A stretch of 64,000 nucleotides of DNA from Parcubacteria group bacterium GW2011_GWA2_42_14 (GTDB taxonomy: Bacteria; Patescibacteriota; Minisyncoccia; Sungbacterales; GWA2-42-14), in the NCBI GenBank assembly GCA_000998135.1, contig LCCV01000003.1, positions 6,392-70,391 of the forward strand, written 5' to 3'. Under the pieces are notes generated by a model. That model did not search any database. It was not told the DNA's origin and worked only from the letters and a program-made list of their open reading frames with translations. This document shows, piece by piece, positions 41,803-63,664 of this stretch (position 1 is its first letter; each line of letters begins with the position of its first letter). Position numbers and translations under genes: made by a program.

Positions 41803-41936
41803 AAAGGGCCCCTGATGGGACGAACCTATTAAGGGACCTTTTCGTATTGATACCACTAGTATAGCAAATGGAGGACTATTGTCAAGCGGGTGGGGATAAC
41901 TAGATTTCTCATTCGCATAGCACATCAAAAAGTGTT

Positions 41937-42360
41937 ATGGAAAGCAATAATGAGAAAAAAGAGAAATTCTACGCTGGCGGATTTCTGTATAACCCCCAAA
42001 TAAAATCGGTGCTTTTGCATCACCGCGATGATAAAACACCAATTCACCCGAATCAGTGGGGATTTTTTGGGGGTCAGAACGAAGGTAGCGAATCGCCAAA
42101 AGAATGTTTTATACGGGAATTGAAAGAAGAGCTCGGCGTTGAAGTGTGGGAAAGTGAAGTGAAGGTATTGTGCGATTATTTGAATAAAAATCGCGGAACT
42201 TGGCGTTCTATTCTATGTTCAAAGTAAACTAGATAAATCGCAAATGACACTTGGGGAAGGGGCGGGTTTTGACTGGATACCGCTTGCAAAAGTATTTGAG
42301 TATGATTTAACTGAGAAAACGGCCCACGATTTAAAAACATTCCTGCGGTTAAAGGAGTAA
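41937..42360 (+). pseudogene. NUDIX hydrolase, apparently frameshifted near 42215-42230
   Basis: The Nudix box GGQNEGSESPKECFIRELKEELGV lies in frame 0, which ends at 42227. The C-terminal-like remainder (LGEGAGFDWIPL...) continues in the +1 frame up to 42360. Confidence 0.45.
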
Positions 42361-49462: not shown

Positions 49463-50710
49463 TCATTTTTTAATAATTAGGTTTTCGGAGCTACCGACGG
49501 TAAACCTTCTATTCATAACCGCGAGTTTTAGAAGCAGATAAAATATTATTGAACCGCCAATGACTAAAATTGCCACCGCGAATGAATCATATTTTATGAT
49601 AAACCATTCTTTATCCCACGGGAAAGCGATATTCATTCCGAAGAATCCGGTCAGGGCCGCCGCAAAGGTGGTCATTTTAATTACGGCAAGTTCCCGCTGG
49701 GTGTTTTCCTCATAGAGAGTGTGTAGAAGCGTTATGGTACCCTCCAGATACTCCCGGGTCATTTCCCATAAATGTTTTGTGTAGGCACCCGCTGAATCCA
49801 GCGGTTCAAAACGGCGGAGTCCGTATTTTTTAAGGAAATCCGATTCGTCTTTGGCGATAGTATGAAATCGTTCTTTTAAAATATCCTGCATTTGAAGGAG
49901 TCGAGCTTCCACATAAGTAATGGTTCGGCGTATTTCCAGAAGCCGCCGCCTTATTTCCGGAAAATCTTTGTAGCGAAGCGAGCGGGAATCCCGGATTTTT
50001 GATATTTCATCCCAAAAAGCCCTATGTCGTCCAAGATAATCTTCCAGCTGGAATTCAAATTCACGGAAAAAAATATCGTGTTTGACGAATGATTCCAGTT
50101 TAATCATGTCTGGTAGTGTGTTTTTGAAGCGAAGTATGGTAAGGGAAGGAGAGCGGTGTATTTCCATTTCCGGCCCCTTTACCACAGAGGTCGGTCTTTC
50201 TTGTATTGAGGAATAAATTTCGTTTATATTTTCATCGCCGGCTTCTGAAATTACGGCAATGAAGGGTAAAACGGTTTTAATATCGCGAATGTCCCGGGGA
50301 ATGGGCGCTCCTAAACTGAAAAGATAATTTATTGCAGGGCCGAGTTTTTGAGTATAAAATTCCAAAAGAAAAGTTCTGGCCTTGGAAAATTCGTGGTCAT
50401 GGGATTCAATAATATTTGCTGTTTTTATAAGCAAAATTCCGTCCTCGGTAATTATAAATTCTCCGTTTTGGAACGAGGCATTAAGAAAATCAGCGTCAAA
50501 TTCTTCATGAAGTTTGAAATCGGTTAAGCCAAGCGTGTCATGAAGTTTTTTGAGCTTTTTAGGGTCCAGGCCCTTAATACCTTCCCTCTCATTTAAAAAA
50601 TTAAAAACCTCCTTCAAATGGATTGAAGTTCGGGGAAACCATGTGCCGAGATAGAGTCGGTGGATGATCATTATGATTATAATATTATACCTCATAAGAT
50701 TTTTGGACAA
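49463..50710 (-). CDS. corA: CorA-family Mg2+/Co2+ transporter
   Basis: The C-terminus ...ALTGFFGMNIAFPW is followed by two TM helices, with the GMN motif. Confidence 0.8.
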   Translation of the reverse strand: MSKNLMRYNIIIIMIIHRLYLGTWFPRTSIHLKEVFNFLNEREGIKGLDPKKLKKLHDTLGLTDFKLHEEFDADFLNASFQNGEFIITEDGILLIKTANIIESHDHEFSKARTFLLEFYTQKLGPAINYLFSLGAPIPRDIRDIKTVLPFIAVISEAGDENINEIYSSIQERPTSVVKGPEMEIHRSPSLTILRFKNTLPDMIKLESFVKHDIFFREFEFQLEDYLGRHRAFWDEISKIRDSRSLRYKDFPEIRRRLLEIRRTITYVEARLLQMQDILKERFHTIAKDESDFLKKYGLRRFEPLDSAGAYTKHLWEMTREYLEGTITLLHTLYEENTQRELAVIKMTTFAAALTGFFGMNIAFPWDKEWFIIKYDSFAVAILVIGGSIIFYLLLKLAVMNRRFTVGSSENLIIKK

Positions 50711-50759
50711 TTGTGCATAACTTTCAATTTTGTCGGAAATCTGTTATATTTTATTGGTA

Positions 50760-52111
50760 TGAAGGAAATATATTTAGATCACGCCGCTACAACTTATTTA
50801 GACCCGCGGGTAAAAGAAGCGATGGATCCGTATTGGGAATTGGAATATGGAAATCCATCCAGTTTATATCGGGTTGGCCGTAGGGCAAAAGATGTTCTTG
50901 ATGGAGCGCGTGTTTCGGTTGCAAAAATTTTAAACTGCCGTTCAGATGAAATTATTTTTACCGGCGGAGGAACCGAAGCGATTAATTTAGCGATTTTTGG
51001 TGCGGCAAGGTATTACGGCCAGCCGCAAGATACAAGATACAAGATACAAGATACAAGTTTTCGCGGTCATATTATTACTTCCAAAATTGAACATCACGCG
51101 GTTTTGCATTCAATGGAGGCGCTGGAAAAAGAAGGGTTTGAAGTAACTTATCTTGATGTTGATGAATACGGGTTGGTTAGTCCGGAAGATGTTAGAAAAG
51201 CGTTGCGGCCGGATACTATCTTGGTTTCAATTATGTATGCCAACAATGAGATTGGAACGATTGAGCCCATCGCGGAAATTTCTAAAATTATCAAAAATTT
51301 TCGCGAGGAATTAAGAATTAAGAATCAGGAATTAGGAAAAAGTCCCGAAACCATAATTCATAATTCATCATTCATACTTCCCGTATTCATGACCGACGCC
51401 TGTCAGGCCTCCGGTTCACTGGACATGGATGTTCAAAAATTGGGCGTTGATTTACTCGCCTTCAATGGCTCCAAAATTTACGGCCCGAAAGGAGTTGGGG
51501 CGCTTTATAAAAAAGCATCGGTGCGTTTGAAGCCCTTGATTTACGGCGGGGGACAGGAAAATCAGATGCGTTCCGGTACGGAAAATGTGCCGGGGATTGT
51601 TGGATTAGCTAAAGCGTTTGAATTGGCGCAAGCGGAAAAAGAAAAAGAAAATATCCGTTTAATTGAACTTCGTGATTACTTCACAAGGCGGCTTTTAACG
51701 GAAATTCCAAAAGTCGTTTTGAACGGGCATCCGGCAAAGCGTTTGCCGAATAATATAAATGTTTCAGTTTTGGATATTGAAGGGGAAGCGGTTATTTTGT
51801 ATCTTGACTCAAAAGGAATTTATATTTCTACCGGTTCTGCTTGCACTTCAACCACCCTTGACCCATCGCATGTTATTTTGGCGTTAGGCAAGCCATATGA
51901 ATACGCCCATGGTTCATTAAGATTTACTTTGGGTAAGCGAACAACCAAAGAGGAGCTGGATTATATTATGGAAGTTTTTCCCGGTATTGTTAAAAAACTA
52001 CGCGCAATTTCTCCGGTTCGGATGGAAGTCGGACAAACAAATGTCAGTCATCCCGAGGCCTTTGCCGGACAAGGTTCGAAGATAAAAGTAGGTGGTAAAA
52101 ATTATAAATAA
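50760..52111 (+). CDS. iscS: Cysteine desulfurase (IscS/NifS) carrying in-frame heptamer-repeat insertions
   Basis: IYLDHAATTYLDPRV, SKIYGPKGVGALY and SGTENVPGIVG are present. The annotated start at 50660 is an over-extension; MKEIYLDHAAT begins at 50760. Confidence 0.9.
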
Positions 52112-52130
52112 AAAAAGGGCTTTATGCCCC

Positions 52131-52367
52131 TTAAATATTTGGTCCATTTTCAACTTCGCCTTTTTCACTTATTGTAAATACAAAACCCTTGTTTTTCAAA
52201 AGTTCAGAGATATCGGTTTCGGAATGAACAATGAATGTTTGAGGATTTCGCACAAAGGCCTTTCCCCTGATACCATGAACCGAGGAAAGCGTTTCCCGCA
52301 GCTGTTCAATGCTGGTATTGCCGTGTCCGAGATCTATAATGTAGATGTAAAGAAACTGTTTGTCCAT
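52131..52367 (-). CDS. hypothetical protein
   Basis: 78-aa ORF. Confidence 0.3.
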   Translation of the reverse strand: MDKQFLYIYIIDLGHGNTSIEQLRETLSSVHGIRGKAFVRNPQTFIVHSETDISELLKNKGFVFTISEKGEVENGPNI

Positions 52368-52483
52368 TTTTTCGTTTCGCGTACTTTAATGGTCCGGAAA
52401 GAATTATTTTTAAGCATAATAGGATTATAGAGAAAACGCAACAAGTAAAAAAGCCGCACGGGTTAGGTGTGGCGGTACGGGTT

Positions 52484-52834
52484 CTAATCGGAATAAGAAG
52501 AACGCGCAAGAGATAGGGTGACATATTCTTCTACTGAAAGTGGTTCCCATACCCTAATGATGTTTATTAGTTCGTATCCCGGAAGGGGGTTTTCGCGACA
52601 GTATAAGGAAACTGTTTTCTCCGGCCAATCAAACTCGGTCTTCATGCGGCTTTTTACTTTACTGGCAATCGTCTTGATTTCATTGTCCGTAAGTTCGTAT
52701 TTTTCTAATTTGTAGCTGGTTGTACTGATAAGACGTTCGGGGTCAGGCGTAATAATATACGGGAAACGTTGAGAAAGATACAATTCCGGGGGCAATGAGT
52801 TTAATGCTTTGTAGAGCGCGAGAAACCTTGCCAT
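52484..52834 (-). CDS. hypothetical protein
   Basis: 116-aa ORF. Confidence 0.35.
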   Translation of the reverse strand: MARFLALYKALNSLPPELYLSQRFPYIITPDPERLISTTSYKLEKYELTDNEIKTIASKVKSRMKTEFDWPEKTVSLYCRENPLPGYELINIIRVWEPLSVEEYVTLSLARSSYSD

Positions 52835-52903
52835 TATTAGTCCCTTTTTGAGTTAAAGAACAGTATATAAATTATAAGTTATTTAATTTAAAAAGTCAAA
52901 TAT

Positions 52904-53569
52904 ATGGATGTAAATCCCAAAATAAACATCAACGCAGATGTTGTGAATCAGTACACCGGCGAGAAGTGGTATTATTCCGATATCGTTAAGGAGCATTTTT
53001 TCAATCCCCGGAATTTAATGCTGGATGAGCCGGATGAGTCGCAATATGACGCGGTTGGGATGGTCGGGAGTCCGGCGTGTGGAGACATGATGAAGATGTG
53101 GCTGAAAATTGAACAGGATTCAGAGCGTGTGAAAGAAATGAAATGGCGTACTTTTGGGTGTGGTTCCGCAATTGCCGCAACTTCTATGTTCAGCGTTATG
53201 GTTACGGAAAATGGGGGACTGCCCATAGGCGAGGCATTAAAAATAAAGCCCCAGCATATAATGGAGCGATTGGGCGGCCTGCCCAATAGGAAAATTCATT
53301 GTTCGGTTTTGGCAGATAAGGCGTTTCGAAAAGCGGCTAATGAGTATTTCCGCAAGACAGGACAAAATCTTCGTGTTATGATAGAAGGAGCGTGCGTGAT
53401 TGATTCAAAATTGAATATTACCGATAAGGATATTGAAGAAGCTGTTTTGGAAGGCGCGACGGATTTGGAATCGGTTCAGAAAAAATTAAAGGTCGGTGTC
53501 GGCTCTCCGGAAATTATTACTGAGGTAGAACAATTAATTAGATTTTATAAAGAAAAATATTATGGTTAG
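52904..53569 (+). CDS. Fe-S cluster scaffold, IscU/NifU N-terminal-domain protein with a C-terminal extension
   Basis: GSPACGDMMKMWLKI...RTFGCGSAIAATS...KIHCSVLADKA carries the three conserved Cys of the IscU/NifU scaffold. Confidence 0.8.
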   Translation: MDVNPKININADVVNQYTGEKWYYSDIVKEHFFNPRNLMLDEPDESQYDAVGMVGSPACGDMMKMWLKIEQDSERVKEMKWRTFGCGSAIAATSMFSVMVTENGGLPIGEALKIKPQHIMERLGGLPNRKIHCSVLADKAFRKAANEYFRKTGQNLRVMIEGACVIDSKLNITDKDIEEAVLEGATDLESVQKKLKVGVGSPEIITEVEQLIRFYKEKYYG

Positions 53570-53786
53570 ATTTAAATTTAATCCGGAAAAGGGCGGTGTT
53601 GAAAAAATTATTGATCCCGATGAAAAAAAGCTGGAAAGAATGCGTGAAGAGGTACTGTTGTTGGAGTCCGAAAAAAAGAAAAGGATATTGTCTCCAGAAG
53701 AAGAAACCCGCCTTTGGAATTTTAAAAAGAGAATCGGAGTTATAGATATTCCCGATTCCGAAATTCATACCGGGCAGTATTTATAA
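53562..53786 (+). CDS. hypothetical protein
   Basis: 74-aa charged ORF overlapping the previous gene by 8 nt. Confidence 0.3.
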   Translation: MVRFKFNPEKGGVEKIIDPDEKKLERMREEVLLLESEKKKRILSPEEETRLWNFKKRIGVIDIPDSEIHTGQYL

Positions 53787-53820
53787 AAAATAGCCCAATA
53801 AGGACTTGGGCTTGAATTTG

Positions 53821-54084
53821 TCAGCGGAAGTTTTTTTGTCGGTTTTCCAAGCGCGAAAGAATATTTTCTATTTCTCGTTCATCTTGCTTTTTAACGGCTT
53901 TTTCCATTTCGTCGAGGTTATACATCATTTCAATCGGGTCATAACCGTAAGTTTGTATAATGCGCCTTGCAAAATTGTCAAGATTTCTGTTCATGAATGC
54001 CTGAATTATTTTTCCAAGTCGCATAGCTTTTGGATTGTCAACAATTGGCATGTTCGTTTTACGCCCTCTTATTCCAAAGAACAT
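53821..54084 (-). CDS. hypothetical protein
   Basis: 87-aa ORF. Confidence 0.3.
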   Translation of the reverse strand: MFFGIRGRKTNMPIVDNPKAMRLGKIIQAFMNRNLDNFARRIIQTYGYDPIEMMYNLDEMEKAVKKQDEREIENILSRLENRQKNFR

Positions 54085-54333
54085 TATTAATGTATTATAA
54101 TCTAATATTATGGAAGGTCAAGTTCCTCAAAATAACTTAACACCGCAATCCCCCGAAGTTAAAAAACCTGTAAAAATCGGTAAAATTATGGCCTGCCCCG
54201 CACCAATTCTGGTTACGATGCTTTACTTGTTTTAAGTGTGAGCCGAAGGCGATTCCGCGAAACAATGTGCCGCTTTTTCTAAAAATATTTTCGGAATTTG
54301 GTGCGGGGTTAACCGGAATCTTTCAAAATAATT

Positions 54334-54600
54334 ATGGATGAACAAAATCAACAAAATAGCCAATCGCAAGAGAAGAAGCCCCTGAAAATAGGGAAGATAG
54401 TTGTTGATAGAAATCTTTGTATTGGCGCGGCCTCCTGCATTGCCGTAGCGCCGGGTGTTTTTGAGCTTGATTCGGAAAATAAGGCCGTGATATATAATGA
54501 TAAGGGGGCGGATGACGAAACGATTCTTTTGGCCGCTAAATCATGCCCTACACAAGCAATATTGGTTTTTGATGAAGAAGGAAATCAGATTTATCCGTAA
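54334..54600 (+). CDS. Ferredoxin (single-cluster, CxxAxxC...CP type, likely 3Fe-4S)
   Basis: IVVDRNLCIGAASCIAVAPGVFELD...AAKSCPTQAI. Confidence 0.75.
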   Translation: MDEQNQQNSQSQEKKPLKIGKIVVDRNLCIGAASCIAVAPGVFELDSENKAVIYNDKGADDETILLAAKSCPTQAILVFDEEGNQIYP

Positions 54601-54710
54601 ACGTGAAGCGTTTAGCGGTTAGTGTATAGCGCGGTTCAGAGTCCTTACGACCCCCTATCGAGAGGGGTTATAAATCAGAATTGTGAAAAAGTCTAAGGTG
54701 TTGAATAATT

Positions 54711-55385
54711 ATGGATTTATCTAATCAATATAATAAAATTGCAAAAGAATTTTCTCGCGTTCATGATATTGGCGAGAATAGCAATCGAGAAAACCGGAAA
54801 GTTTTTTATAGCAACCTTGACTTTATAAAGCCGGGGATAAAGTTGCTTGACCTCGCTTGTGGTGATGGTCTTGATTTGGCCTACTATAAGAGTTTAGGCG
54901 CGGAGATATATGGTTTGGATGCTTCGGAAGAGTTTGTCGCCAGCGCTAAAGAGAAATTACCGAAATCAGATATACGAGTCGGTCTTTTTAAAAACCTTCC
55001 GTTTGAGAATAATTTTTTTGATGTCGTTTTAAGTAAATATGCAATACAGACATCACATGATTTGAATCCGGTATTTTCAGAGATTCATCGCGTTCTCAAG
55101 TCCGGCGGGATTATGATGTATCTTGTTACTCATCCTTTTCGCCAGTATTTTGAAAAAAGAGACGTAAAAGCCGATTATTTTGAGCAAAAAGTTGTTGAGC
55201 CGAGGATTCTTAATAACTCAATTATTGTTCAGGAGCCAACCCACACAATGAACGAATATTTGAATGAATTTCTTTTTAAGAATTTTGATATCCAATTTTT
55301 TCAAGAATACTGGGATACTGCCGCTGAACAGATTGATGGTAGAAAGTATCCAGGGTATTTTATTCTTAAAGCGAAAAAGCGCTAA
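54711..55385 (+). CDS. Class I SAM-dependent methyltransferase
   Basis: LLDLACGDGLDLAYYKSLGAEIYGLDASEEFV is motif I, followed by post-I motifs. Confidence 0.75.
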   Translation: MDLSNQYNKIAKEFSRVHDIGENSNRENRKVFYSNLDFIKPGIKLLDLACGDGLDLAYYKSLGAEIYGLDASEEFVASAKEKLPKSDIRVGLFKNLPFENNFFDVVLSKYAIQTSHDLNPVFSEIHRVLKSGGIMMYLVTHPFRQYFEKRDVKADYFEQKVVEPRILNNSIIVQEPTHTMNEYLNEFLFKNFDIQFFQEYWDTAAEQIDGRKYPGYFILKAKKR

Positions 55386-55421
55386 ACGAGAAAGCTGGTT
55401 AATAAATTAAAATCATAAATT

Positions 55422-55997
55422 ATGTACGAACCAAAAAACTTTGACCACCTTTTAGGAACCGCTGGTTTTAGCGACACGCTTCTTAAAAATCACTTCACTC
55501 TTTATCAAGGATACGTTACCAACACAAATAAACTTGCTGATGCTTTATCACAAATGATAGAAACGGAAAAAATCGGAACACCGGAGTATGCGGAACTGAA
55601 GCGAAGATTCGGTTGGGAATTTAACGGAATGCGGCTTCACGAACTTTACTTTAGTAATATGAAAAAAGGCGGAGTGGCGCTTGATACAAATTCGGAACTC
55701 TATAAAAAAATTATTGCAGATTTCGGAAATTATGAAAACTGGGAGAAGGATTTCAAAGCTACGGGAGCAATGCGGGGAATCGGGTGGACAATTCTTTATT
55801 ACGACCCAGAAGTAAAACGCGTGTTCAATGTTTGGATTAATGAGCATGATTTTGGGCATTTGGCCGGATGTAAGCCGCTTTTGGTGCTTGATGTTTTTGA
55901 ACACGCTTACATGCTTGATTACGGACTTAAACGCGCCGATTATATTGAAGCGTTTTTTAAAGCCATAGATTGGGAAGTGGTTGCTTCGCGTTTTTAA
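55422..55997 (+). CDS. Fe/Mn superoxide dismutase
   Basis: DVFEHAYMLDY...ADYIEAFFKAIDWEVVASRF matches DVWEHAYYLDY...YI.AFW..VNW..V..R. The N-terminal His ligands are partly degenerate. Confidence 0.8.
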   Translation: MYEPKNFDHLLGTAGFSDTLLKNHFTLYQGYVTNTNKLADALSQMIETEKIGTPEYAELKRRFGWEFNGMRLHELYFSNMKKGGVALDTNSELYKKIIADFGNYENWEKDFKATGAMRGIGWTILYYDPEVKRVFNVWINEHDFGHLAGCKPLLVLDVFEHAYMLDYGLKRADYIEAFFKAIDWEVVASRF

Positions 55998-56024
55998 TTT
56001 TATCCGCAACTATTTTTAACAACC

Positions 56025-57452
56025 ATGAAAGAGAAAGAAAAATATACTTCTGAACAAATCGAAAAATTTGAAACGTCAAGAACAATTTCTGACGCGGAGC
56101 TATTAAAATCCGGCGCGCGTTACGAAATTGACGGACAAACAGGGGAAAAACGGCTAATTGCGTCAGTGGAACAAACAGAACGTATTCATCAAGCGGTGGA
56201 AGATTTGCTTGCCAAGAACATTCTTAGTAAAAAAGAATTGAAAGATGTTGATTTTGATTTAACGTTTGAGGGGGAGGAGGGCGGAACCGGTTTTGAATTT
56301 GAGGTTGAAGAAGAGCAGAGGATACTGGTATCGCCTGAAAATATTGAGATTAAGGAGTGGAAGAATCATATTATTGACGTATATGATCAGTCCGGTAGGT
56401 GCCGCATCAGGGTGAAAAACGGAGAACCGCGGCTTTCCTTAAAGGTGCCGCTTTTATCGCGGGATACGGAACGCGCGAAATGCTGTGTAAGGATTGAAAT
56501 AAAGCCGCGAACTAAGGGGAAGGCGGCTATTTTTGAAAAAATGCGTGAGTTGATACTTCATGAACCGGGAACAGAAGTCCATGAAAAATGGGGAACCCCT
56601 ATTAAGACCAGGGACGGTAAGAAGATTTGGATTAATAAGGATGACCAGGGAAATTACTGGATAGAAACGGACGAGGGTGTGTCTGTGGAGGAATTATTGC
56701 CCGAAGGTGTCAGATATATAGGCCACGAAAAAAGTAAAATATCAATAGACAGGAACAGAGCCGTTGCGTCTCCTATAGAAAAATTGTCTAAGCTTAACAT
56801 AGTTCGTGGCAATGCTGAAAATTTTGAAACTTTTAAAAAGTTATTTCATGAAAATTTGGAATCAACCAGCCGGACCGCCAAGGGTTTAGTGGATGCATCC
56901 GTGAGTTCAAAAAAAGAAAAGCCGTCTATGGGAAAAGAAAAAATTACCGAATTTATGAAACAAAACGAAGAAGAAGTTATACAGTATATTTGGAATAGTC
57001 GCGATAGAGCTTATAATACTTCCGAGGAGATAAAACAATTGCTTAACGATATTATCGGAATAATAAACAAAAATATAGCATCGGAACCTTATAAATTAAG
57101 GGAATGGCCATGGCGGGATTTGCCCGCGGAAAGAATACGCGAGGAAGTGGAGCAATTTACATATGATTTATTTTCTAAGTTAGCCGGCATTGAAAGGGGC
57201 GCGGAAAAACCTTATGAAGTAGCATGCTGGGCGGAGCTTGAATATGACAGGAGAATCCACCCGCTTGTTGACGGATGCGGAAGGGTTTCAAAAGCGATTT
57301 CGGCATTTATATTATTACGCTATAAACATCCACTTCCGGACTACGGGTCGCGTGATGAGTATTATAAGGCAATGAATGATGATGAGGACTGTTTTAAAAA
57401 TTATTATCAGGGAGCGCTTCTTCGTTCAATAAACAAGGATTATCTAAAGTAA
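56025..57452 (+). CDS. Large hypothetical protein with a C-terminal Fic/Doc (Fido)-like motif (HPLVDGCGRVSK)
   Basis: ...EYDRRIHPLVDGCGRVSKAISAFILLRYKHPLP resembles the Fic core HPFx(D/E)GNGRxxR, with a Cys replacing the Asn and the trailing Arg lost. Confidence 0.45.
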   Translation: MKEKEKYTSEQIEKFETSRTISDAELLKSGARYEIDGQTGEKRLIASVEQTERIHQAVEDLLAKNILSKKELKDVDFDLTFEGEEGGTGFEFEVEEEQRILVSPENIEIKEWKNHIIDVYDQSGRCRIRVKNGEPRLSLKVPLLSRDTERAKCCVRIEIKPRTKGKAAIFEKMRELILHEPGTEVHEKWGTPIKTRDGKKIWINKDDQGNYWIETDEGVSVEELLPEGVRYIGHEKSKISIDRNRAVASPIEKLSKLNIVRGNAENFETFKKLFHENLESTSRTAKGLVDASVSSKKEKPSMGKEKITEFMKQNEEEVIQYIWNSRDRAYNTSEEIKQLLNDIIGIINKNIASEPYKLREWPWRDLPAERIREEVEQFTYDLFSKLAGIERGAEKPYEVACWAELEYDRRIHPLVDGCGRVSKAISAFILLRYKHPLPDYGSRDEYYKAMNDDEDCFKNYYQGALLRSINKDYLK

Positions 57453-58027
57453 TGAGAAAGTCCGTTAAAAAAGATTTACAATTTATAAAAAAATGTTTTG
57501 GACAGAAAAAAGACGCGTCTGGCCGGTATGTTTGGCGCCATGCGCATGATGCCGCGTTATATCTTGAAAAAATAGCCCGGAAATATAAAGAGACAGATCC
57601 TGCTATGATTGATAAACTTTATCTTGCTGTCTTGGGTCATGACCTTTTGGAAGACACCAAAGCTACTAAAAACGAAATACAAAAAAAGTGGGGTAAGGAT
57701 GTATTGAAGTATATTGAGGCCTTAACAAACAAAAAAGGCGATACCGATTTTAGCGGTTATATAAAACAATTGCGAGACGCGCGAGAGGAGGTATTACTCG
57801 TGAAATTCGCGGATATATTCAGTAATGTATCAAATTCTGTTAGATTCTTCGGTTCATTTGATTCGCATTGGATTAAGACATTCTGGCTGCCGTTACTTAA
57901 GGATTATAACCAAAATTTATTTGGCAGAAAATTCTTATTATATCCCCGGACGGCATCGGCCATGATAAAAGATATTCAGAGAGAAATTCGCAACCTTTTA
58001 AAAAATGCGATAAAAAATAAAAATTAG
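57452..58027 (+). CDS. HD-domain phosphohydrolase (SpoT/Mesh1-like small alarmone hydrolase family)
   Basis: RHAHDAALYL...LAVLGHDLLEDT...FG match the HD motif pattern of the RelA/SpoT hydrolase domain. Start and stop overlap the upstream gene (TAATG). Confidence 0.6.
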   Translation: MRKSVKKDLQFIKKCFGQKKDASGRYVWRHAHDAALYLEKIARKYKETDPAMIDKLYLAVLGHDLLEDTKATKNEIQKKWGKDVLKYIEALTNKKGDTDFSGYIKQLRDAREEVLLVKFADIFSNVSNSVRFFGSFDSHWIKTFWLPLLKDYNQNLFGRKFLLYPRTASAMIKDIQREIRNLLKNAIKNKN

Positions 58028-58241
58028 CTTTTTATAAATTAATATGTTATAATATAAATATGGAACCAGAACGCAATTATTTTAATATTAAAGGCCCTGA
58101 AGAAATTAATCGAGAAATGGTTGATGAGCTTATGGCCGGTGGTATGACTAAGGAAGAGGCCGAAAAAGAGGCGGCAAGGCGGATGGATTTGAGAAAGAGG
58201 GGAATGCGCGAAGAAGCTGATAAAAATCTATAATCAAAGAT

Positions 58242-58460
58242 ATGAAAGAACGGGTGGAAAAAGCCCTGGATGAAATTCGTCCTCTATTGGCTCGGCATCT
58301 TGGCAATGTTGAATTTGTCAATTTTGAAAATGGTGTTGTATATGTTCGCATGCTTGGTACTTGCAATGGTTGTCCGTTGTCGCGGTTAACTTTAAGGGCG
58401 GGGATTGAAGGATTACTGAAAGAAAAAGTTGAAGGAGTGGAGAGGGTAGAAGCTATATAA
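58242..58460 (+). CDS. NifU-like C-terminal domain (Nfu-type Fe-S carrier)
   Basis: IRPLLARHLGNVEFVNFENGVVYVRMLGTCNGCPLSRLTLRAGIEGLL carries the CxxC motif. Confidence 0.7.
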   Translation: MKERVEKALDEIRPLLARHLGNVEFVNFENGVVYVRMLGTCNGCPLSRLTLRAGIEGLLKEKVEGVERVEAI

Positions 58461-58640
58461 ATTCAAAATTCAAAGCATTAAATCCTAAATAATATAAAAA
58501 TTCAAAACATAAAAAGTAGGTGGTTTTGGATTTTGGCATTTGAATTTATTTGGGTCGGAAGCAAACAGTTTTGCTTCCGACGGGCGAAGTCCGGGAATTT
58601 GCCGAGAGGGCAAATTTTGTGATTTTGAAATTGGGATTTT
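58440..58640. repeat. intergenic copy (reverse orientation) of the hairpin element found inside atpG, preceded by aaattcaaa-type AT repeats
   Basis: ggaagcaaaacagttttgcttcc, cgggcgaagtccgg and aatttgccgagagggcaaatt hairpins match 46030-46095 after reverse complementing. Confidence 0.8.
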
Positions 58641-59921
58641 ATGTTTTTTGATATTGAAAAACAAAATAATATAGATAATAAAGAATACCACAATTTGAAC
58701 CAGCGTCAGGTTATTATTTTGACCATTGTTTTAACTTTTATAATTTCCGTTGCCACCACTCTGGCAACGGTTTATTATCTTTCGGATGTTTTGAAAATTA
58801 CCATTACCCCCAACATTTATCAGAATACTCTTCCGGTTCAGGAAAAAATCACTAAGGAGATTAACGAAAAAGTTTTGCGCCAGGATGAGTTGGTTGTATC
58901 AGTAGTAAAAGAAGTTTCGTCGGCGGTGGTAAGCATTATTGCCGCTAAAGATGTTCCGCTGGTTGAGCAGTATTTTATAAATCCGTTCGGTGGCGACCAG
59001 TTTTTTGATGAATTTTTCAGGCAGTTCCAGATTCCGCAGTATCGCCAAAAAGGTACGCAAAAACAGCAGGTTTCAGCGGGCACAGGTTTTATCGTTTCTT
59101 CAGACGGCCTTATTATTACCAATAAACATGTTGTTTCCGATACTTCCGCCGAATATACCGTTTTTTTCAATGACGGTTCCAATACTTCGGCAAAAGTTTT
59201 GGCTTTAGACCCATTTCAAGATTTAGCTATTTTAAAAGTTGACAAATCAAATTTGAAAATTGCTGTCTTGGGCGATTCTTCAAAAATTGATATAGGTCAG
59301 TCGGTTATAGCAATTGGAAACGCGCTGGGCGAATTTAGAAACACTGTAAGTGTTGGTATTGTTTCCGGACTTGGCAGGTCAATCATCGCTTTCGGTTCCG
59401 GTATAGGCGGGGAAGAATTGCAGGAGTTGATTCAGATTGATGCCGCGATTAATCCCGGGAATTCAGGGGGTCCCTTGTTAAATTTACGTGGAGAAGTTAT
59501 CGGTATAAACGTTGCTATGGCCCAGGGCGCGGAAAACATCGGTTTTGCCATTCCGATAAATAAAGCCAGACGTGATTTGGAAAGCGTTAAATTAAAAGGA
59601 AAAATTATTTATCCTTTTATCGGCATTCGTTACCTGACAATCAATAAAACTATCCAGGAAGATAGAAAATTATCGGTTGATTACGGGGCATTGTTGGTTG
59701 AAACCGATGATGGTCCGGCAATCGTGGCCGGAAGTCCGGCTGAAAAGGCAGGATTGAAAAACGGCGATATTATACTTTCAATAAATGGTGAGAAAATTGA
59801 GCAGGAAAAACCGCTTTCGGAAATTCTGCAAAAATATTCGGTGGGAGACGGCATAACTTTAAAAGTGTTGAGAGAAGGAAAAGAGTTTGAGGCATCACTT
59901 ATGCTTGTAGAGAGAAAGTAG
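58641..59921 (+). CDS. htrA: HtrA/DegP-family serine protease with a PDZ domain
   Basis: An N-terminal TM segment is followed by GTGFIVSSDGLIITNKHVV, DLAILKV and GNSGGPLLN, with a C-terminal PDZ. Confidence 0.9.
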   Translation: MFFDIEKQNNIDNKEYHNLNQRQVIILTIVLTFIISVATTLATVYYLSDVLKITITPNIYQNTLPVQEKITKEINEKVLRQDELVVSVVKEVSSAVVSIIAAKDVPLVEQYFINPFGGDQFFDEFFRQFQIPQYRQKGTQKQQVSAGTGFIVSSDGLIITNKHVVSDTSAEYTVFFNDGSNTSAKVLALDPFQDLAILKVDKSNLKIAVLGDSSKIDIGQSVIAIGNALGEFRNTVSVGIVSGLGRSIIAFGSGIGGEELQELIQIDAAINPGNSGGPLLNLRGEVIGINVAMAQGAENIGFAIPINKARRDLESVKLKGKIIYPFIGIRYLTINKTIQEDRKLSVDYGALLVETDDGPAIVAGSPAEKAGLKNGDIILSINGEKIEQEKPLSEILQKYSVGDGITLKVLREGKEFEASLMLVERK

Positions 59922-60070
59922 TTTAATAATTTTTAATTTTCCAATTTCCAATTTTCAATAAATTATCCAATTTCTAAATTTCCAAACACGGCGCTTCATA
60001 ATTGAAAATTAAATCATTGAAAATTGATTGAAAATTTATAATTGATAATTGAAAATTCATAAGACTGTTT
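59922..60070. repeat. AT-rich aattttc-caa / ttgaaaatt inverted and tandem repeat array between htrA and rpoB
   Basis: ttttaattttccaatttccaattttcaa ... attgaaaattaaatcattgaaaattgattgaaaattt. A similar aattttcaattttcaattttcaa array lies at 48150-48172. Confidence 0.7.
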
Positions 60071-60344
60071 ATGGGACTTATCCACAGCTATTATTACCGA
60101 CCTCTTGACAAGTTTTTAAGACCTGCTATACTTAACTCTTAGCCTTTTAAATATAAAGGAGGGCTCCCTGGCCGCTCGCAGTAATGGGTGGGCTAGGCAA
60201 AATTAGCTTGTTTTATTTGCGATTTTTAAAGAATTTCGCTCCTCTCGGGGGTTTAAAGTACTCTCAAAAAGGGCGATAATATTCGCAAAACTTAATAAAC
60301 CCTATACCACAGGGCCTATTTATTTTTTTGTGTGTCAAAATCCT

Positions 60345-60425
60345 ACAAATTACGAATTTTGCCGAATTACGAATTTGATGATTTTTCTCCATTCGTAATT
60401 CGATTTTATTCGTAATTCGTAGGGG
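60345..60425. repeat. aattacgaatt / attcgtaatt palindromic repeats upstream of rpoB
   Basis: aaattacgaattttgccgaattacgaattt ... cattcgtaattcgattttattcgtaattcgtagg. Confidence 0.7.
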
Positions 60426-60430
60426 AACAT

Positions 60431-63400
60431 TTGAAGAAGTATTTTTCCAATTATAAAATGCCTCCGTTGAACCTGCCCAACCTTTCGGCTATCCAGCTGG
60501 ATTCTTATCAGTGGTTTTTGGATAAGGGCCTGCGGGAATTGTTTGACGAAGTTTCTCCGATCAAAGGGTTTGCCGGCAAAGAATTGGCTCTGGAGCTTTC
60601 ATTAGGAGATTATTACATTGACCAGCCTAAATTTACCGAGGTTCACGCCAAAGAACATAATTTGTCATATGAAGCGCCTCTTCGCGTTAAGGTCCGTCTT
60701 GTTAACAAGAAAACTGATGAAATAAAAGAGCAGGAAATTTATTTGGGAGATTTTCCTTTAATGACGGATAGAGGAACTTTTATTGTAAACGGGGTGGAGC
60801 GTGTTATAGTTTCCCAACTTATCCGTTCTTCGGGCGTATATTTTATTCTTAATCAGATACGCGGCAAAAAATATTTCGGAGCAAAAATCATTCCTAACAG
60901 GGGCGCTTGGTTTGAATTTGAAACTGATTTTGACGGTTCCATAAACGTAAGAATTGACCGAAAAAGAAAAATTTCCGCAACCTCCATTCTTCGCATATTT
61001 GGCATGGAGAAAAACGAACAGATAATGGACGCGTTCCGAAACATAGATAACGGAGAATTCTCTTTTATAAAGAAAACGCTTGAGCGCGATTCTTCCAAAA
61101 GCAGGGATGAAGCATTTATTGAAATTTATAAGCGCATTCGTCCGGGAGAGCTTGCCGCCGTTGATAACGCGCGTTCGCTGATTGAAGCTATGTTAAGTTT
61201 TGATAGATATGATTTGGCCGGCTGGGGACGGTTTAAATTCAATCAGCGGCTGGGACTTAAGAAAAATCCCCAAAAAGAAGAAAACAGGATATTGGATCTT
61301 CAGGATATGATTGCGGTAATTTCGGAAATTATCCGTATGAATAATTTGCAGGATGTGGTTCCGGACGATATTGATCACCTGGGAAATCGCAGGGTGCGCG
61401 GCGTGGGAGAGCTTTTGCAAAACAAGCTTCGCGTGGGCATGTCCCGTCTCATAAGAATTGTAAGGGATCGCATGTCAACCATTGATGTTTATACTATGAC
61501 TCCGGCCCAGCTTATCAATGCCAGACCTTTTATCGCGTCGGTCAAAGAATTTTTTACGTCATCCCAGCTTTCACAATTCATGGACCAGGTTAACCCTTTG
61601 GCCGAACTTGAACACAGAAGGCGGCTTTCGGCTATGGGGCCAGGCGGACTTACTCGCGAAAGAGCGGGTTTTGAAGTCAGAGACGTTCATCCTTCACACT
61701 ACGGAAGAATTTGTCCTATTCAGACGCCGGAAGGACAGAATATCGGTTTGGTTGGCCATCTTGCCGGATTCGCCCGCATTAATGAATTGGGACTGATTGA
61801 AACTCCGTATAGAAAAGTAAAAAACGGAAAAATTACCGGAGAAATAGAATATTTTGACGCATCATCCGAAATTCATTTCAGCATTGCTCATGCAGGAATT
61901 AAGTATGACGAACAAGGTATGATTATTGATGAAAAAGTTGAAGCTAGAATACACGGCAGTCCCGGATTGGTTAACCGCGAAAAAATCAATTATATTGATA
62001 TTTCGCCGCAGCAATTTATAAGTGTGGCTACATCATTGATTCCGTTTCTTGAGCATGATGATGCCAACAGGGCCATGATGGGTTCAAACATGCAACGTCA
62101 GGCCGTTCCTTGCGTAAGAGCCGAAGCTCCGTTGGTTGGAACTGGTGTTGAAGAAAGGGCCGCCTGGGATTCGGGCAGAGTCATTCTTGCTGATGACGAC
62201 GGGGTCATTACTGGTGCGGATGCTTGTTCTATAACCTTGAAATCAAAAAAGGGGAAAGAATATGTTCATATTCTTAATTCTTTTTTACGAACGAACCAGT
62301 TTACCGCTATCAGCCAGAAGCCGCTGGTTAAAAAAGGAGATAATGTTAAAAAGGGCCAGGTTTTGGCCGACGGTTCGTCAACCGATAAAGGAGAGTTGGC
62401 GCTTGGAAAAAATTTGCTGGTTGCTTTTGTTTCCTGGCGGGGAGCAAATTATGAAGATGCCATAATTATTTCCGAAAAACTCGTTGAAAAAGATATTTTT
62501 ACCTCAATTCATATTGAAGACCATGCTATTGACGTCAGGGATACGAAACTCGGACCCGAGGAAACATCCCCTGATATACCCAATGTATCTGAGGAAAAAT
62601 TAAAGAATCTTGATGAAGAAGGAATCATAAGAATAGGCGCGGAAGTCCGTTCCAACGATATTTTGGTGGGAAAAATTTCTCCCAAGGGCGAATCGGATTT
62701 GACTCCTGAAGAAAAATTGCTTCGCGCTATTTTCGGCGAGAAGGCTCGTGACGTCAAAGATACTTCTTTAACTCTTTCTCACGGTAAAAGAGGACGCATT
62801 GTGGGTATAAAGATATTTTCGCGTGACAGAGGCGATAAACTGGAGTCCGGAGTCATAAAAAGAGTGCAGGTTGAAGTGGCCCAACTTAGAAAGATTATGG
62901 TAGGCGATAAGCTTGCCGGAAGACACGGAAATAAAGGCGTTATTTCAAAAATATTGCCGCCGGAAGATATGCCGTGTCTTGCCGACGGAACGCCGGTAGA
63001 TGTCATTTTAAATCCTTTGGGTGTTGCTTCGCGCATGAATATAGGACAAATTTTGGAAACCCATCTTGGATGGGCCGCTCAAAAATTGGGATATCGGGCT
63101 GTAACGCCCGCTTTTATCGGTGTTACCGAGCAGGAAATAAAAGATGAGCTTATAAAGGCGGGGCTCCCCGAAGACGGCAAAGTTGATTTGTATGACGGTT
63201 TAACCGGAGAAAAATTCCATCAAAAAGTTACGGTGGGAATGATTTATATAATGAAGCTGATTCATTTAGTTGAGGATAAGATTCACATGCGTTCCATCGG
63301 CCCTTATTCCTTGATTACCCAGCAGCCGCTTGGAGGAAAAGCGCAGTTCGGGGGCCAGCGGTTTGGAGAAATGGAGGTGTGGGCCTTGGAAGGTTACGGT

Positions 63401-63664
63401 TCCGCGCACACTTTGCAGGAAATGCTTACTATAAAATCGGATGATGTGCTTGGGAGGTCCGCAACCTATGAAGCGATAATTTCGGGAGAGAAAATCAAAA
63501 AGCCGAATTTGCCGGCATCTTTTCACGTTTTGGTAAATGAATTAAAGGGTTTGGCCTTGAATGTGCAGTTGAAAGGAATGCAGGGGGAAGGAGCCGGAAC
63601 AGGGCAGGCAAAAGAGGTGGCGGATAGAAAGGAATCAAGGGAAAGAGTGAGAATGAGAGGATAG
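60431..63664 (+). CDS. rpoB: DNA-directed RNA polymerase subunit beta
   Basis: The N- and C-terminal signatures are canonical RpoB. Length is 1077 aa. Confidence 0.97.

Follow-up and report, generated by a model that had tools for sequence, protein, structure and literature searches.

The activities known for Fic enzymes are those of protein AMPylators, kinases and phosphocholine transferases, whereas small alarmone hydrolases (SAHs) have been met as partners of RelA/SpoT-type synthetases. Two overlapping genes of Parcubacteria group bacterium GW2011_GWA2_42_14 raise the question of why a predicted member of each group should be encoded side by side. They are located in a stretch of 64,000 nucleotides of contig LCCV01000003.1 (the window) and are referred to as open reading frame (ORF) A, encoding a protein with a Fic domain, and ORF B, encoding an HD-domain hydrolase (Table 1). 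Domain identities, intact catalytic residues and a conserved, co-evolving adjacency were observed for the pair. Our preferred answer, at a probability of roughly 0.45, is a nucleotide-centred writer/eraser or toxin/antidote module, in which an active, uninhibited Fic transferase (ORF A) would be antagonised by the SAH-type ORF B; the antagonism, the substrate class and the toxicity are what we infer.

Both ORFs are judged to be real genes rather than chance ORFs, because each has its own homologues with invariant residues. ORF A was identical to the NCBI entry 'hypothetical protein A3G49_06495' of Candidatus Sungbacteria, bin RIFCSPLOWO2_12_FULL_41, and had 24 homologue clusters with 32-52% identity over the full length, in which H412, P413, D416, G417, C418 and G419 were invariant. 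The stop codon TAA of ORF A (57450-57452) shares its final A with the ATG of ORF B (57452-57454). This 1-base overlap, TAATG, had been pointed out in a preliminary description of the pair and was found at 57450-57454. By eye, AAGGA at 57435-57439, 12 nt upstream of the ORF B start, is a plausible Shine-Dalgarno site.

Domains of the two proteins

An AlphaFold2 model of ORF A was built on the family alignment and had a mean predicted local distance difference test score (pLDDT) of 83, with values >90 across most of the Fic domain. It consisted of a helical N-terminus of weak prediction (residues 1-85), then a domain rich in beta-strands (~88-235) and lastly a helical domain (~265-475). The helical domain resembled FICD/HYPE, BT_2513 and Caenorhabditis elegans Fic-1 with a Foldseek probability of 1.0; E was 3e-5 for FICD, 3cuc and Fic-1. 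A profile of 40 Fic-domain sequences matched FICD in the Protein Data Bank (PDB) at E=1.2e-17, and hhalign of the domain against the FICD sequence gave 98.5%. A flap hairpin was predicted at about residues 358-366. The C-terminus of ORF A is a genuine Fic/Fido domain. The preliminary description had proposed a Fido fold with a non-canonical motif, as was found here; its C-terminal Fido-like core turned out to be a true Fic domain, with an extent of ~210 residues (262-475) rather than 150. Direct scans of ORF A with Pfam and NCBIfam returned no family, and a PHROGs scan gave weak matches of unknown function only.

The active-site loop HPLVDGCGRVSK keeps the His, the Asp, both Gly and the first Arg of the canonical HxFx[D/E]GNGRxxR, whereas Cys takes the place of Asn, and Lys that of the second Arg. 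These replacements were widespread. An exhaustive hidden Markov model search of 1.84 billion representatives matched 980 clusters at E<=1e-3, of which 517 reached E<=1e-10. Among the 116 members sampled, the loop followed HxFxDG[C/V]G[R/K]xx[K/R], with Cys in 99 and Val in 13 sequences at the Asn position, Arg or Lys at the first Arg, and Lys (79/116) or Arg (16/116) at the last position. HxFxDGCG is thus the signature of a large Fic clade and not a one-off variant. Cys418 is unlikely to act as a catalytic nucleophile, since this residue is Val in 13 of the 116 members.

A second motif, S282-R-T-x-x-G...K297, was almost invariant in the same 116 members, together with N314, R359 and E404. The alpha-inh motif of FICD, TxxxEG, is located about as far upstream of the catalytic His as SRTxxG. 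ORF A does not match the class II alpha-inh consensus [S/T]xxxE[G/N], as it reads S282xxxK286G287, and the putative inhibitory-Glu position held K, Q, N, R, S, H or G in the 116 members, never E. The equivalence of SRTxxG and alpha-inh was not confirmed by hhalign and global alignment, which aligned the core only, against an FICD sequence with an approximate N-terminal stretch; the spacing would suggest a 'Glu-less class-II-like Fic'. As ORF A deviates both from the canonical motif and at the inhibitory Glu, it should not be classed as a classical AMPylator and is best described as a divergent clade member.

Residues ~86-238 of ORF A form a predicted beta-barrel that resembles a CYTH/triphosphate-tunnel domain and which the preliminary description had overlooked along with the clade-wide HxFxDGCG signature and the other nucleotide-related partners of the clade described below. 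CYTH domains bind triphosphates. Modelled alone with AlphaFold2, the barrel reached a pLDDT of 91. Its top Foldseek matches in the PDB were the CYTH proteins PH1819 (2een) and human thiamine triphosphatase (3tvl), with probabilities of 0.96-0.97, but E values of 0.02-0.03 and a TM-score of ~0.4. Invariant residues were E93xE95xE97..R99, R127xR129xK131, R136 and K140, and further K152xC154xR156xE158xK160, K188 and E214xD216. They alternate as expected for a triphosphate tunnel, in an assignment made without a sequence-level CYTH match: neither the PDB profile search nor Pfam at E<=10 for 14 members of the N-domain family gave one. The domain is assigned as CYTH-like with moderate confidence. 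Other proteins carried it by itself or in tandem pairs, and it is a separate, mobile unit. Four proteins of ~325 aa (P0056, P0067, P0078 and P0086) carried two tandem copies without Fic.

ORF B was only weakly matched by Pfam HD and HD_4 (HD_4 at 20.3 bits, below the cut-off), and TIGR00691 gave a weak local match. A profile of 16 ORF B-family sequences searched against the PDB was more informative, with matches to PaSAH PA0431 (6yvc, 1.9e-12), Drosophila Mesh1 (3nqw, 1.3e-10), human HDDC3 (3.7e-8) and the Rel hydrolase domain of Thermus thermophilus (5e-8). H30, H63, D64, E67, D68, K118, D121 and N125 were invariant in the 16 sequences, so that the signature H..HD..ED..KxAD..N of RelA/SpoT-homologue (RSH) hydrolases is intact. 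ORF B is a single-domain protein with neither synthetase nor regulatory domains, and its homologues had 180-218 aa. Because of the profile matches and the invariant signature, ORF B is very probably an active enzyme of the SAH/Mesh1 type. The same type had been suggested earlier, and with PaSAH as best match and all catalytic residues kept the suggestion was borne out. The strings on which the earlier assignments relied were also present, ...RRIHPLVDGCGRVSKAISAFILLRYKHPLP in ORF A and RHAHDAALYL and LGHDLLEDT in ORF B. Hydrolases of the RSH type cleave (pyro)phosphate esters on the ribose 3'/2'-OH, with (p)ppGpp, (p)ppApp, NADPH (Mesh1) and pyrophosphorylated tRNA (toxSAS antitoxins) as substrates.

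Conservation of the pair and partners of the Fic clade

The survey of gene neighbourhoods comprised 56 metagenome loci and several contigs that were looked up by protein. Members with CYTH-like and Fic domains are called the long form and those with Fic only the short form. On contigs from one genome per species, the HD gene adjoined the Fic gene in 9 of 10 true relatives. Among long-form loci with room on the contig, the window included, it did so in 13 of 14; a fifteenth locus (L020) ended 148 nt past the gene. A shortened long-form gene paired with HD was found from the HD side (L075). For the short form, 15 of 53 metagenome/genome loci had HD on the downstream or upstream side or in divergent orientation, as did L069, L071 and L073; at least 17 distinct short-form loci had such a neighbour. 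Junctions were tight, with a start/stop overlap or a gap of a few nt in L001, L013, L016, L017, L053 and L072 and overlapping codons in L001, L013, L017 and L072. Look-ups that started from HD proteins were consistent with this: the Fic gene was directly upstream for P0027 and P0030, and homologue P0031 adjoined the long-form Fic gene on the L002 contig. The pair thus recurs across many Patescibacteria lineages, and the co-occurrence on which the earlier proposal depended does exist.

Pairwise divergences of the Fic and HD proteins were correlated over 25 distinct pairs (Mantel r=0.82, none of 2000 permutations as high, with a contribution of shared phylogeny), and mean divergence was 0.68 for the Fic domains and 0.67 for the HDs. 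The two genes are therefore inherited as a unit. The flanks of the unit varied by genome, from a SAM-methyltransferase with superoxide dismutase and a NifU-like gene in the window to a ribosomal protein/dnaK region in L071 and thyA/tmk/tdk in L072. The module was rare and patchy, occurring in Sung-, Falkow-, Woese- and Paceibacteria, Saccharibacteria, Doudna- and Giovannonibacteria, and for this reason is regarded as an accessory cassette. Annotated phage and plasmid collections gave no match, and a scan of IMG/VR returned one locus only, the polyvalent protein described below.

Three loci of the survey deserve separate mention. L005, a long-form Fic-HD pair with 44% GC, is recorded under the title 'uncultured Pseudomonadales bacterium'. 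This label looks misplaced, because every other named record with the pair among the genome contigs is from Patescibacteria, and it may be a binning error. In L012 (gene 1083-2534), the translation of the sequence directly after the gene is like that of tRNA genes (…GVAGSSPARS…), which may mark a rearrangement or insertion site. In L073, a second RelA/SpoT-type HD_4 protein outside the Fic-linked HD subfamily (1-725) was present ~2.5 kb upstream of the short-form Fic-HD pair; at least some hosts therefore have another SAH/SpoT-like hydrolase.

The Fic clade also had recurrent partners other than HD. In short-form loci on Patescibacteria-like contigs, a P-loop-Csx3 protein ('AAA-Csx3') was the neighbour in ~17 loci (Pfam Cas_csx3 4e-19, PADLOC 'Csx3-AAA'); none of these loci showed cas genes. 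Elsewhere, Csx3 is known as an accessory ring nuclease of type III CRISPR systems and acts on RNA and cyclic tetra-adenylate. AAA_28/AAA_18-type small-molecule kinases and Clp1-like P-loop proteins were present in some short-form loci. At least seven loci held, next to the Fic-HD pair, a ParB/Srx-like DGxHR protein of 220-230 aa with the C-terminus ...FRDLKY(L/V)GIDG and a weak match to Pfam Parb-CE. A subclade with higher GC and the loop HPFYDGCGRI[AS]R had an adjoining or fused Nudix domain, and after Fic/Nudix came a gene for a protein of 890 aa that joins a RelA_SpoT synthetase to TPR, SLOG (LSDAT_prok) and RyR domains; this set looks like a nucleotide-signal conflict system. TCAD9/APH-kinase giants and a STAND-TPR NTPase were other neighbours of the subclade. 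In L036 (2171-8960), L044, L046, L051 and L058, the Fic gene overlapped the end of a gene for a TCAD9/APH-kinase-like protein of 930-990 aa, which in L044 also carried an HD domain. A DUF4145-STAND-TPR NTPase was encoded downstream of the Fic gene in L036. Giant proteins joined the Fic domain with Zeta-toxin/AAA_33 kinases. One of these, a 1449-aa protein of an IMG/VR contig (L028/L068, 1593-5942), combined a Mu-type portal (Portal_Mu) with an HxFxDGCG Fic domain and a Zeta-toxin kinase and is a phage 'polyvalent' architecture. What these contexts have in common is chemistry on nucleotides or RNA ends within architectures of the conflict type. The clade is linked to both RelA/SpoT halves, to the hydrolase in the candidate phyla radiation and to the synthetase elsewhere. 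In the window, a search for Csx3, ParB-like, RSH-synthetase and TCAD9 partners found none, and a weak Nudix-like match at 41904-42224 was unrelated.

Table 1. Coordinates of the Fic-HD pair, of its motifs and neighbours in the window, and of partner genes in other loci of the Fic clade
Feature	Sequence	Position	Strand	Remarks
ORF A	Window	56025..57452	+	ATG start, 475 aa; helical N-terminus, CYTH-like barrel, Fic domain
CYTH/triphosphate-tunnel-like beta-barrel	Window	56280..56738	+	Residues ~86-238; predicted
Fic (Fido) domain	Window	56808..57449	+	Residues ~262-475, ~210 aa
Clade motif S282-R-T-x-x-G287-x-x-D-T-S-x-S-x-x-K297	Window	56868..56915	+	~130 residues upstream of the catalytic His
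Fic active-site motif H412-P-L-V-D416-G-C418-G-R420-V-S-K423	Window	57258..57293	+	
Gene junction	Window	57435..57454	+	AAGGA, then TAATG stop/start overlap
ORF B	Window	57452..58027	+	ATG start, 191 aa; single-domain HD hydrolase, RelA/SpoT-hydrolase (SAH/Mesh1) type
H63-D64-L-L-E67-D68	Window	57638..57655	+	Metal-binding HD pair and ED diad typical of (p)ppGpp hydrolases
K118-F-A-D121-I-F-S-N125	Window	57803..57826	+	KxADxxxN motif of RSH hydrolases
Surrounding stretch	Window	49463-63664		Housekeeping, rich in Fe-S and oxidative-stress genes
CorA-like protein (motif GMN)	Window			First gene of the stretch 49463-63664
Cysteine desulfurase-like ORF	Window	50660-52111		
NifU/IscU-like	Window	52904-53569		
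Ferredoxin-like ORF	Window	54334-54600		
SAM methyltransferase	Window	54711-55385	+	Same strand as the pair, upstream
Fe/Mn superoxide dismutase	Window	55422-55997	+	Same strand as the pair, upstream
NifU-domain protein	Window	58242-58460		Downstream of the pair
HtrA-type protease	Window	58641-59921		Downstream
rpoB	Window	60431-63664		Downstream
AAA-Csx3 beside Fic	L007	2766-3937		
AAA-Csx3 beside Fic	L010	4778-5344		
AAA-Csx3 fused to Fic	L019	3054-5612		
AAA-Csx3 beside Fic, further loci	L021, L025, L027, L029, L032, L034, L035, L037, L040-L042, L045, L053			
ParB-like protein	L009	6672-7346		
ParB-like protein	L030	4584-5255		
ParB-like protein	L048	3614-4285		
ParB-like protein	L060	5667-6344		
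ParB-like protein	L069	7106-7801		
ParB-like protein	L071	5703-6380		
RelA_SpoT-SLOG-RyR protein	L049	2339-5406		
RelA_SpoT-SLOG-RyR protein	L023	3772-6569		
RelA_SpoT-SLOG-RyR protein	L066	266-3327		

Candidate mechanisms

In the preferred reading, the module would be self-contained and horizontally mobile, with two enzymes acting antagonistically in phosphate chemistry. ORF A would be an active Fic transferase, as it has kept its catalytic His along with the metal-binding Asp and the first Arg, and would be free of the inhibitory Glu if SRTxxG is the equivalent of alpha-inh. Since the loop has Cys instead of Asn and Lys instead of the second Arg, its donor, acceptor or orientation probably differs from that of classical AMPylators. 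The CYTH-like domain may bind or process a triphosphate, and the enzyme would move a phosphoryl-containing group (nucleoside monophosphate [NMP], phosphate or pyrophosphate) from a nucleoside triphosphate to a hydroxyl acceptor. The likeliest acceptor would be a ribose 2'/3'-OH, either in a nucleotide or at an RNA end; a protein is the other option. ORF B, whose overlapping gene would keep its synthesis in a fixed ratio to that of ORF A, would restrain ORF A: as an eraser it would hydrolyse the ribose-linked (pyro)phosphate or nucleotidyl product, and as an antidote it would destroy the nucleotide that ORF A needs or makes. The conflict-type contexts of the same clade, namely Portal_Mu-Fic-Zeta, TCAD9/STAND, RelA_SpoT-SLOG-RyR with Nudix, and AAA-Csx3, support such a role. 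The same recurrent nucleotide-related partners also widen the range of possible mechanisms beyond a two-component toxin-antitoxin pair.

Several observations weigh against this proposal. L012 is the only long-form locus without HD despite 2.6 kb of downstream sequence, and ~35 of the 53 short-form metagenome loci were without an HD neighbour; HD is therefore not an obligate partner of the clade. PADLOC had no dedicated model that matched ORF A. Some pairs are located among nucleotide-metabolism genes, which also fits a metabolic role. Furthermore, we know of no RSH-type hydrolase that removes Fic-type protein modifications.

Another reading is a second-messenger circuit without toxicity. The CYTH-Fic protein would then make, or be controlled by, an alarmone-like nucleotide (3'-phosphorylated or nucleotidylated), with HD as the off-switch, as an equivalent of an RSH pair in reduced genomes. 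The RSH-hydrolase type of the HD domain, the triphosphate binding of CYTH domains and the RelA_SpoT synthetase-SLOG-RyR and Nudix neighbours of same-clade Fic genes (L023, L049, L066) agree with this, and the additional conserved basic residues R283, K297 and K423 could hold extra phosphates. Yet free nucleotide messengers are not known as Fic products, a rare and patchy module is unlike a core stress circuit, and L073 has a separate HD_4 protein near the module. We consider a messenger circuit rather unlikely. Even lower odds are given to a function at RNA ends, in processing, capping-like reactions or repair, with the CYTH-like domain as RNA 5'-triphosphatase, Fic as NMP transferase on the RNA end and HD as phosphoesterase or decapping enzyme; in the short form, a P-loop protein (polynucleotide-kinase-like) and Csx3 would replace CYTH. 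Triphosphate-tunnel enzymes include the RNA triphosphatases of capping systems, the domain order from triphosphatase to nucleotidyl transferase is that of capping enzymes, and short-form loci hold AAA-Csx3, AAA_28/AAA_18 and Clp1-like P-loop proteins, of which Csx3 is an RNA-acting family. Against this stand the structural and weak CYTH assignment (E 0.02), the lack of any known RNA-modifying Fic enzyme and the finding that the pair had no conserved partner of a repair or capping type, such as a ligase or methyltransferase.

Ordinary nucleotide-salvage or housekeeping enzymes that travel together, such as a Doc-like metabolite kinase and an HD nucleotidase, would account for pairs beside tmk, tdk, thyA, pyrB and glyA (L069/L070 and L072) and for the same-strand housekeeping stretch of the window, in which the pair follows the methyltransferase and superoxide dismutase. 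This is improbable for a pair that is present in very few genomes with different flanks everywhere, whose HDxxED signature is that of alarmone hydrolases and not of nucleotidases, and whose wider clade occurs in conflict-type architectures. A Fic domain that serves only for binding or regulation, leaving HD and perhaps CYTH as the enzymes, could be argued from the exchange of Asn for Cys and of the second Arg for Lys relative to the canonical motif. We regard it as highly improbable, as His, Asp, both Gly and Arg/Lys were invariant or nearly so in at least 116 divergent members, which is typical of an active site.

Beyond the writer/eraser or toxin/antidote module as such, a more far-reaching proposal concerns the whole HxFxDGCG clade. 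It might be a new enzyme class that writes phosphate-containing marks on ribose hydroxyls or RNA/nucleotide ends, with SAH-type HD as dedicated eraser, and thus a Fic-based counterpart of RelA/SpoT in the conflict or stress signalling of Patescibacteria. This is speculative and, on balance, doubtful. Possible activities would be the pyrophosphorylation or NMPylation of nucleotides or tRNA, or the capping of 5'-triphosphate RNA via the CYTH-like domain.

Relation to known systems and surroundings in the window

FICD/HYPE and the class II AMPylases BT_2513 and C. elegans Fic-1 were the best profile and fold matches of ORF A. They resemble ORF A in the helical core and the flap hairpin, in the HxFxDG.GR loop and in having a conserved motif at a distance of ~130 residues ahead of the His. 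ORF A differs by Cys/Val for Asn, Lys for the second Arg and SRTxxG without Glu upstream, and it has a CYTH-like fusion and a dedicated HD partner instead of TPR or a membrane anchor. With toxSAS-SAH systems (FaRel/ATfaRel, PhRel2 and CapRel-type), the pair shares a small alarmone hydrolase with the same HD signature that adjoins or overlaps a nucleotide-using transferase. The transferase, however, has a Fic fold and not that of a RelA/SpoT synthetase. No RelA_SpoT domain is present in ORF A, which has CYTH-like and Fic domains instead, and without an RSH synthetase the module lacks the defining toxSAS feature.

Class I Fic pairs (VbhT-VbhA and FicT-FicA) and Doc-Phd likewise consist of a Fic-fold enzyme and a tightly linked small partner gene. 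In those systems a peptide without enzymatic activity serves as the partner and either supplies an inhibitory Glu or obstructs the site, whereas here the partner is a predicted enzyme, and there is no conserved inhibitory Glu. GlnD, a uridylyltransferase with an HD uridylyl-removing domain, and AnkX/Lem3 resemble the module in logic only, as a transferase with a hydrolase that reverses the mark; their folds and targets are different, and GlnD holds both activities in one protein. The predicted barrel of ORF A has a pattern that fits CYTH/triphosphate-tunnel enzymes (ThTPase, CyaB and Cet1-type RNA triphosphatases): ExEx(E/K) in a strand near its N-terminus, strands in which Arg and Lys alternate, and two acidic residues towards the C-terminus. 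Sequence-level similarity to these enzymes is absent, and the TM-score is low.

A few short-form members are labelled 'Fic family protein' by automated annotation, and the assignment of the fold is to that extent not novel. The literature searched contained nothing on Fic with SAH, Fic with Csx3, Fic with CYTH or Fic in Patescibacteria, and the clade signature, the CYTH-like fusion, the SAH-type partner and the recurrent Csx3, ParB, Nudix and RSH-synthetase contexts appeared in none of the papers searched. The preliminary description likewise knew of no published module of this kind. Fic goes unmentioned in a 2020 eLife paper on ternary conflict systems. Through a Fic-SAH pair that is conserved and co-evolves, the fields of Fic enzymes and alarmone hydrolases would become connected, all the more because RelA/SpoT synthetase-SLOG, Nudix, Csx3 and kinase proteins also occur next to members of this Fic clade. 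The resulting prediction is that alarmone-like nucleotides or ribose-linked phosphates are what a Fic-fold enzyme acts on or acts through. The analysis also delimits an uncharacterised Fic clade of considerable size (at least 517 clusters at E<=1e-10), recognisable by its diagnostic motif and apparently devoid of an auto-inhibitory Glu. For Patescibacteria, whose biology is little studied experimentally, an accessory enzymatic module would be an experimental handle.

The pair is embedded in housekeeping genes (Table 1), and no defence genes were seen close to it between 49463 and 63664. A scan for promoters and terminators gave counts no higher than those of shuffled sequence, and an operon boundary can therefore not be called. 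The AT-rich gap between ORF B and the NifU-like gene contains an ORF of 57 aa, a putative gene too short for the list of ORFs, with the sequence MEPERNYFNIKGPEEINREMVDELMAGGMTKEEAEKEAARRMDLRKRGMREEADKNL at 58060-58233 (+).

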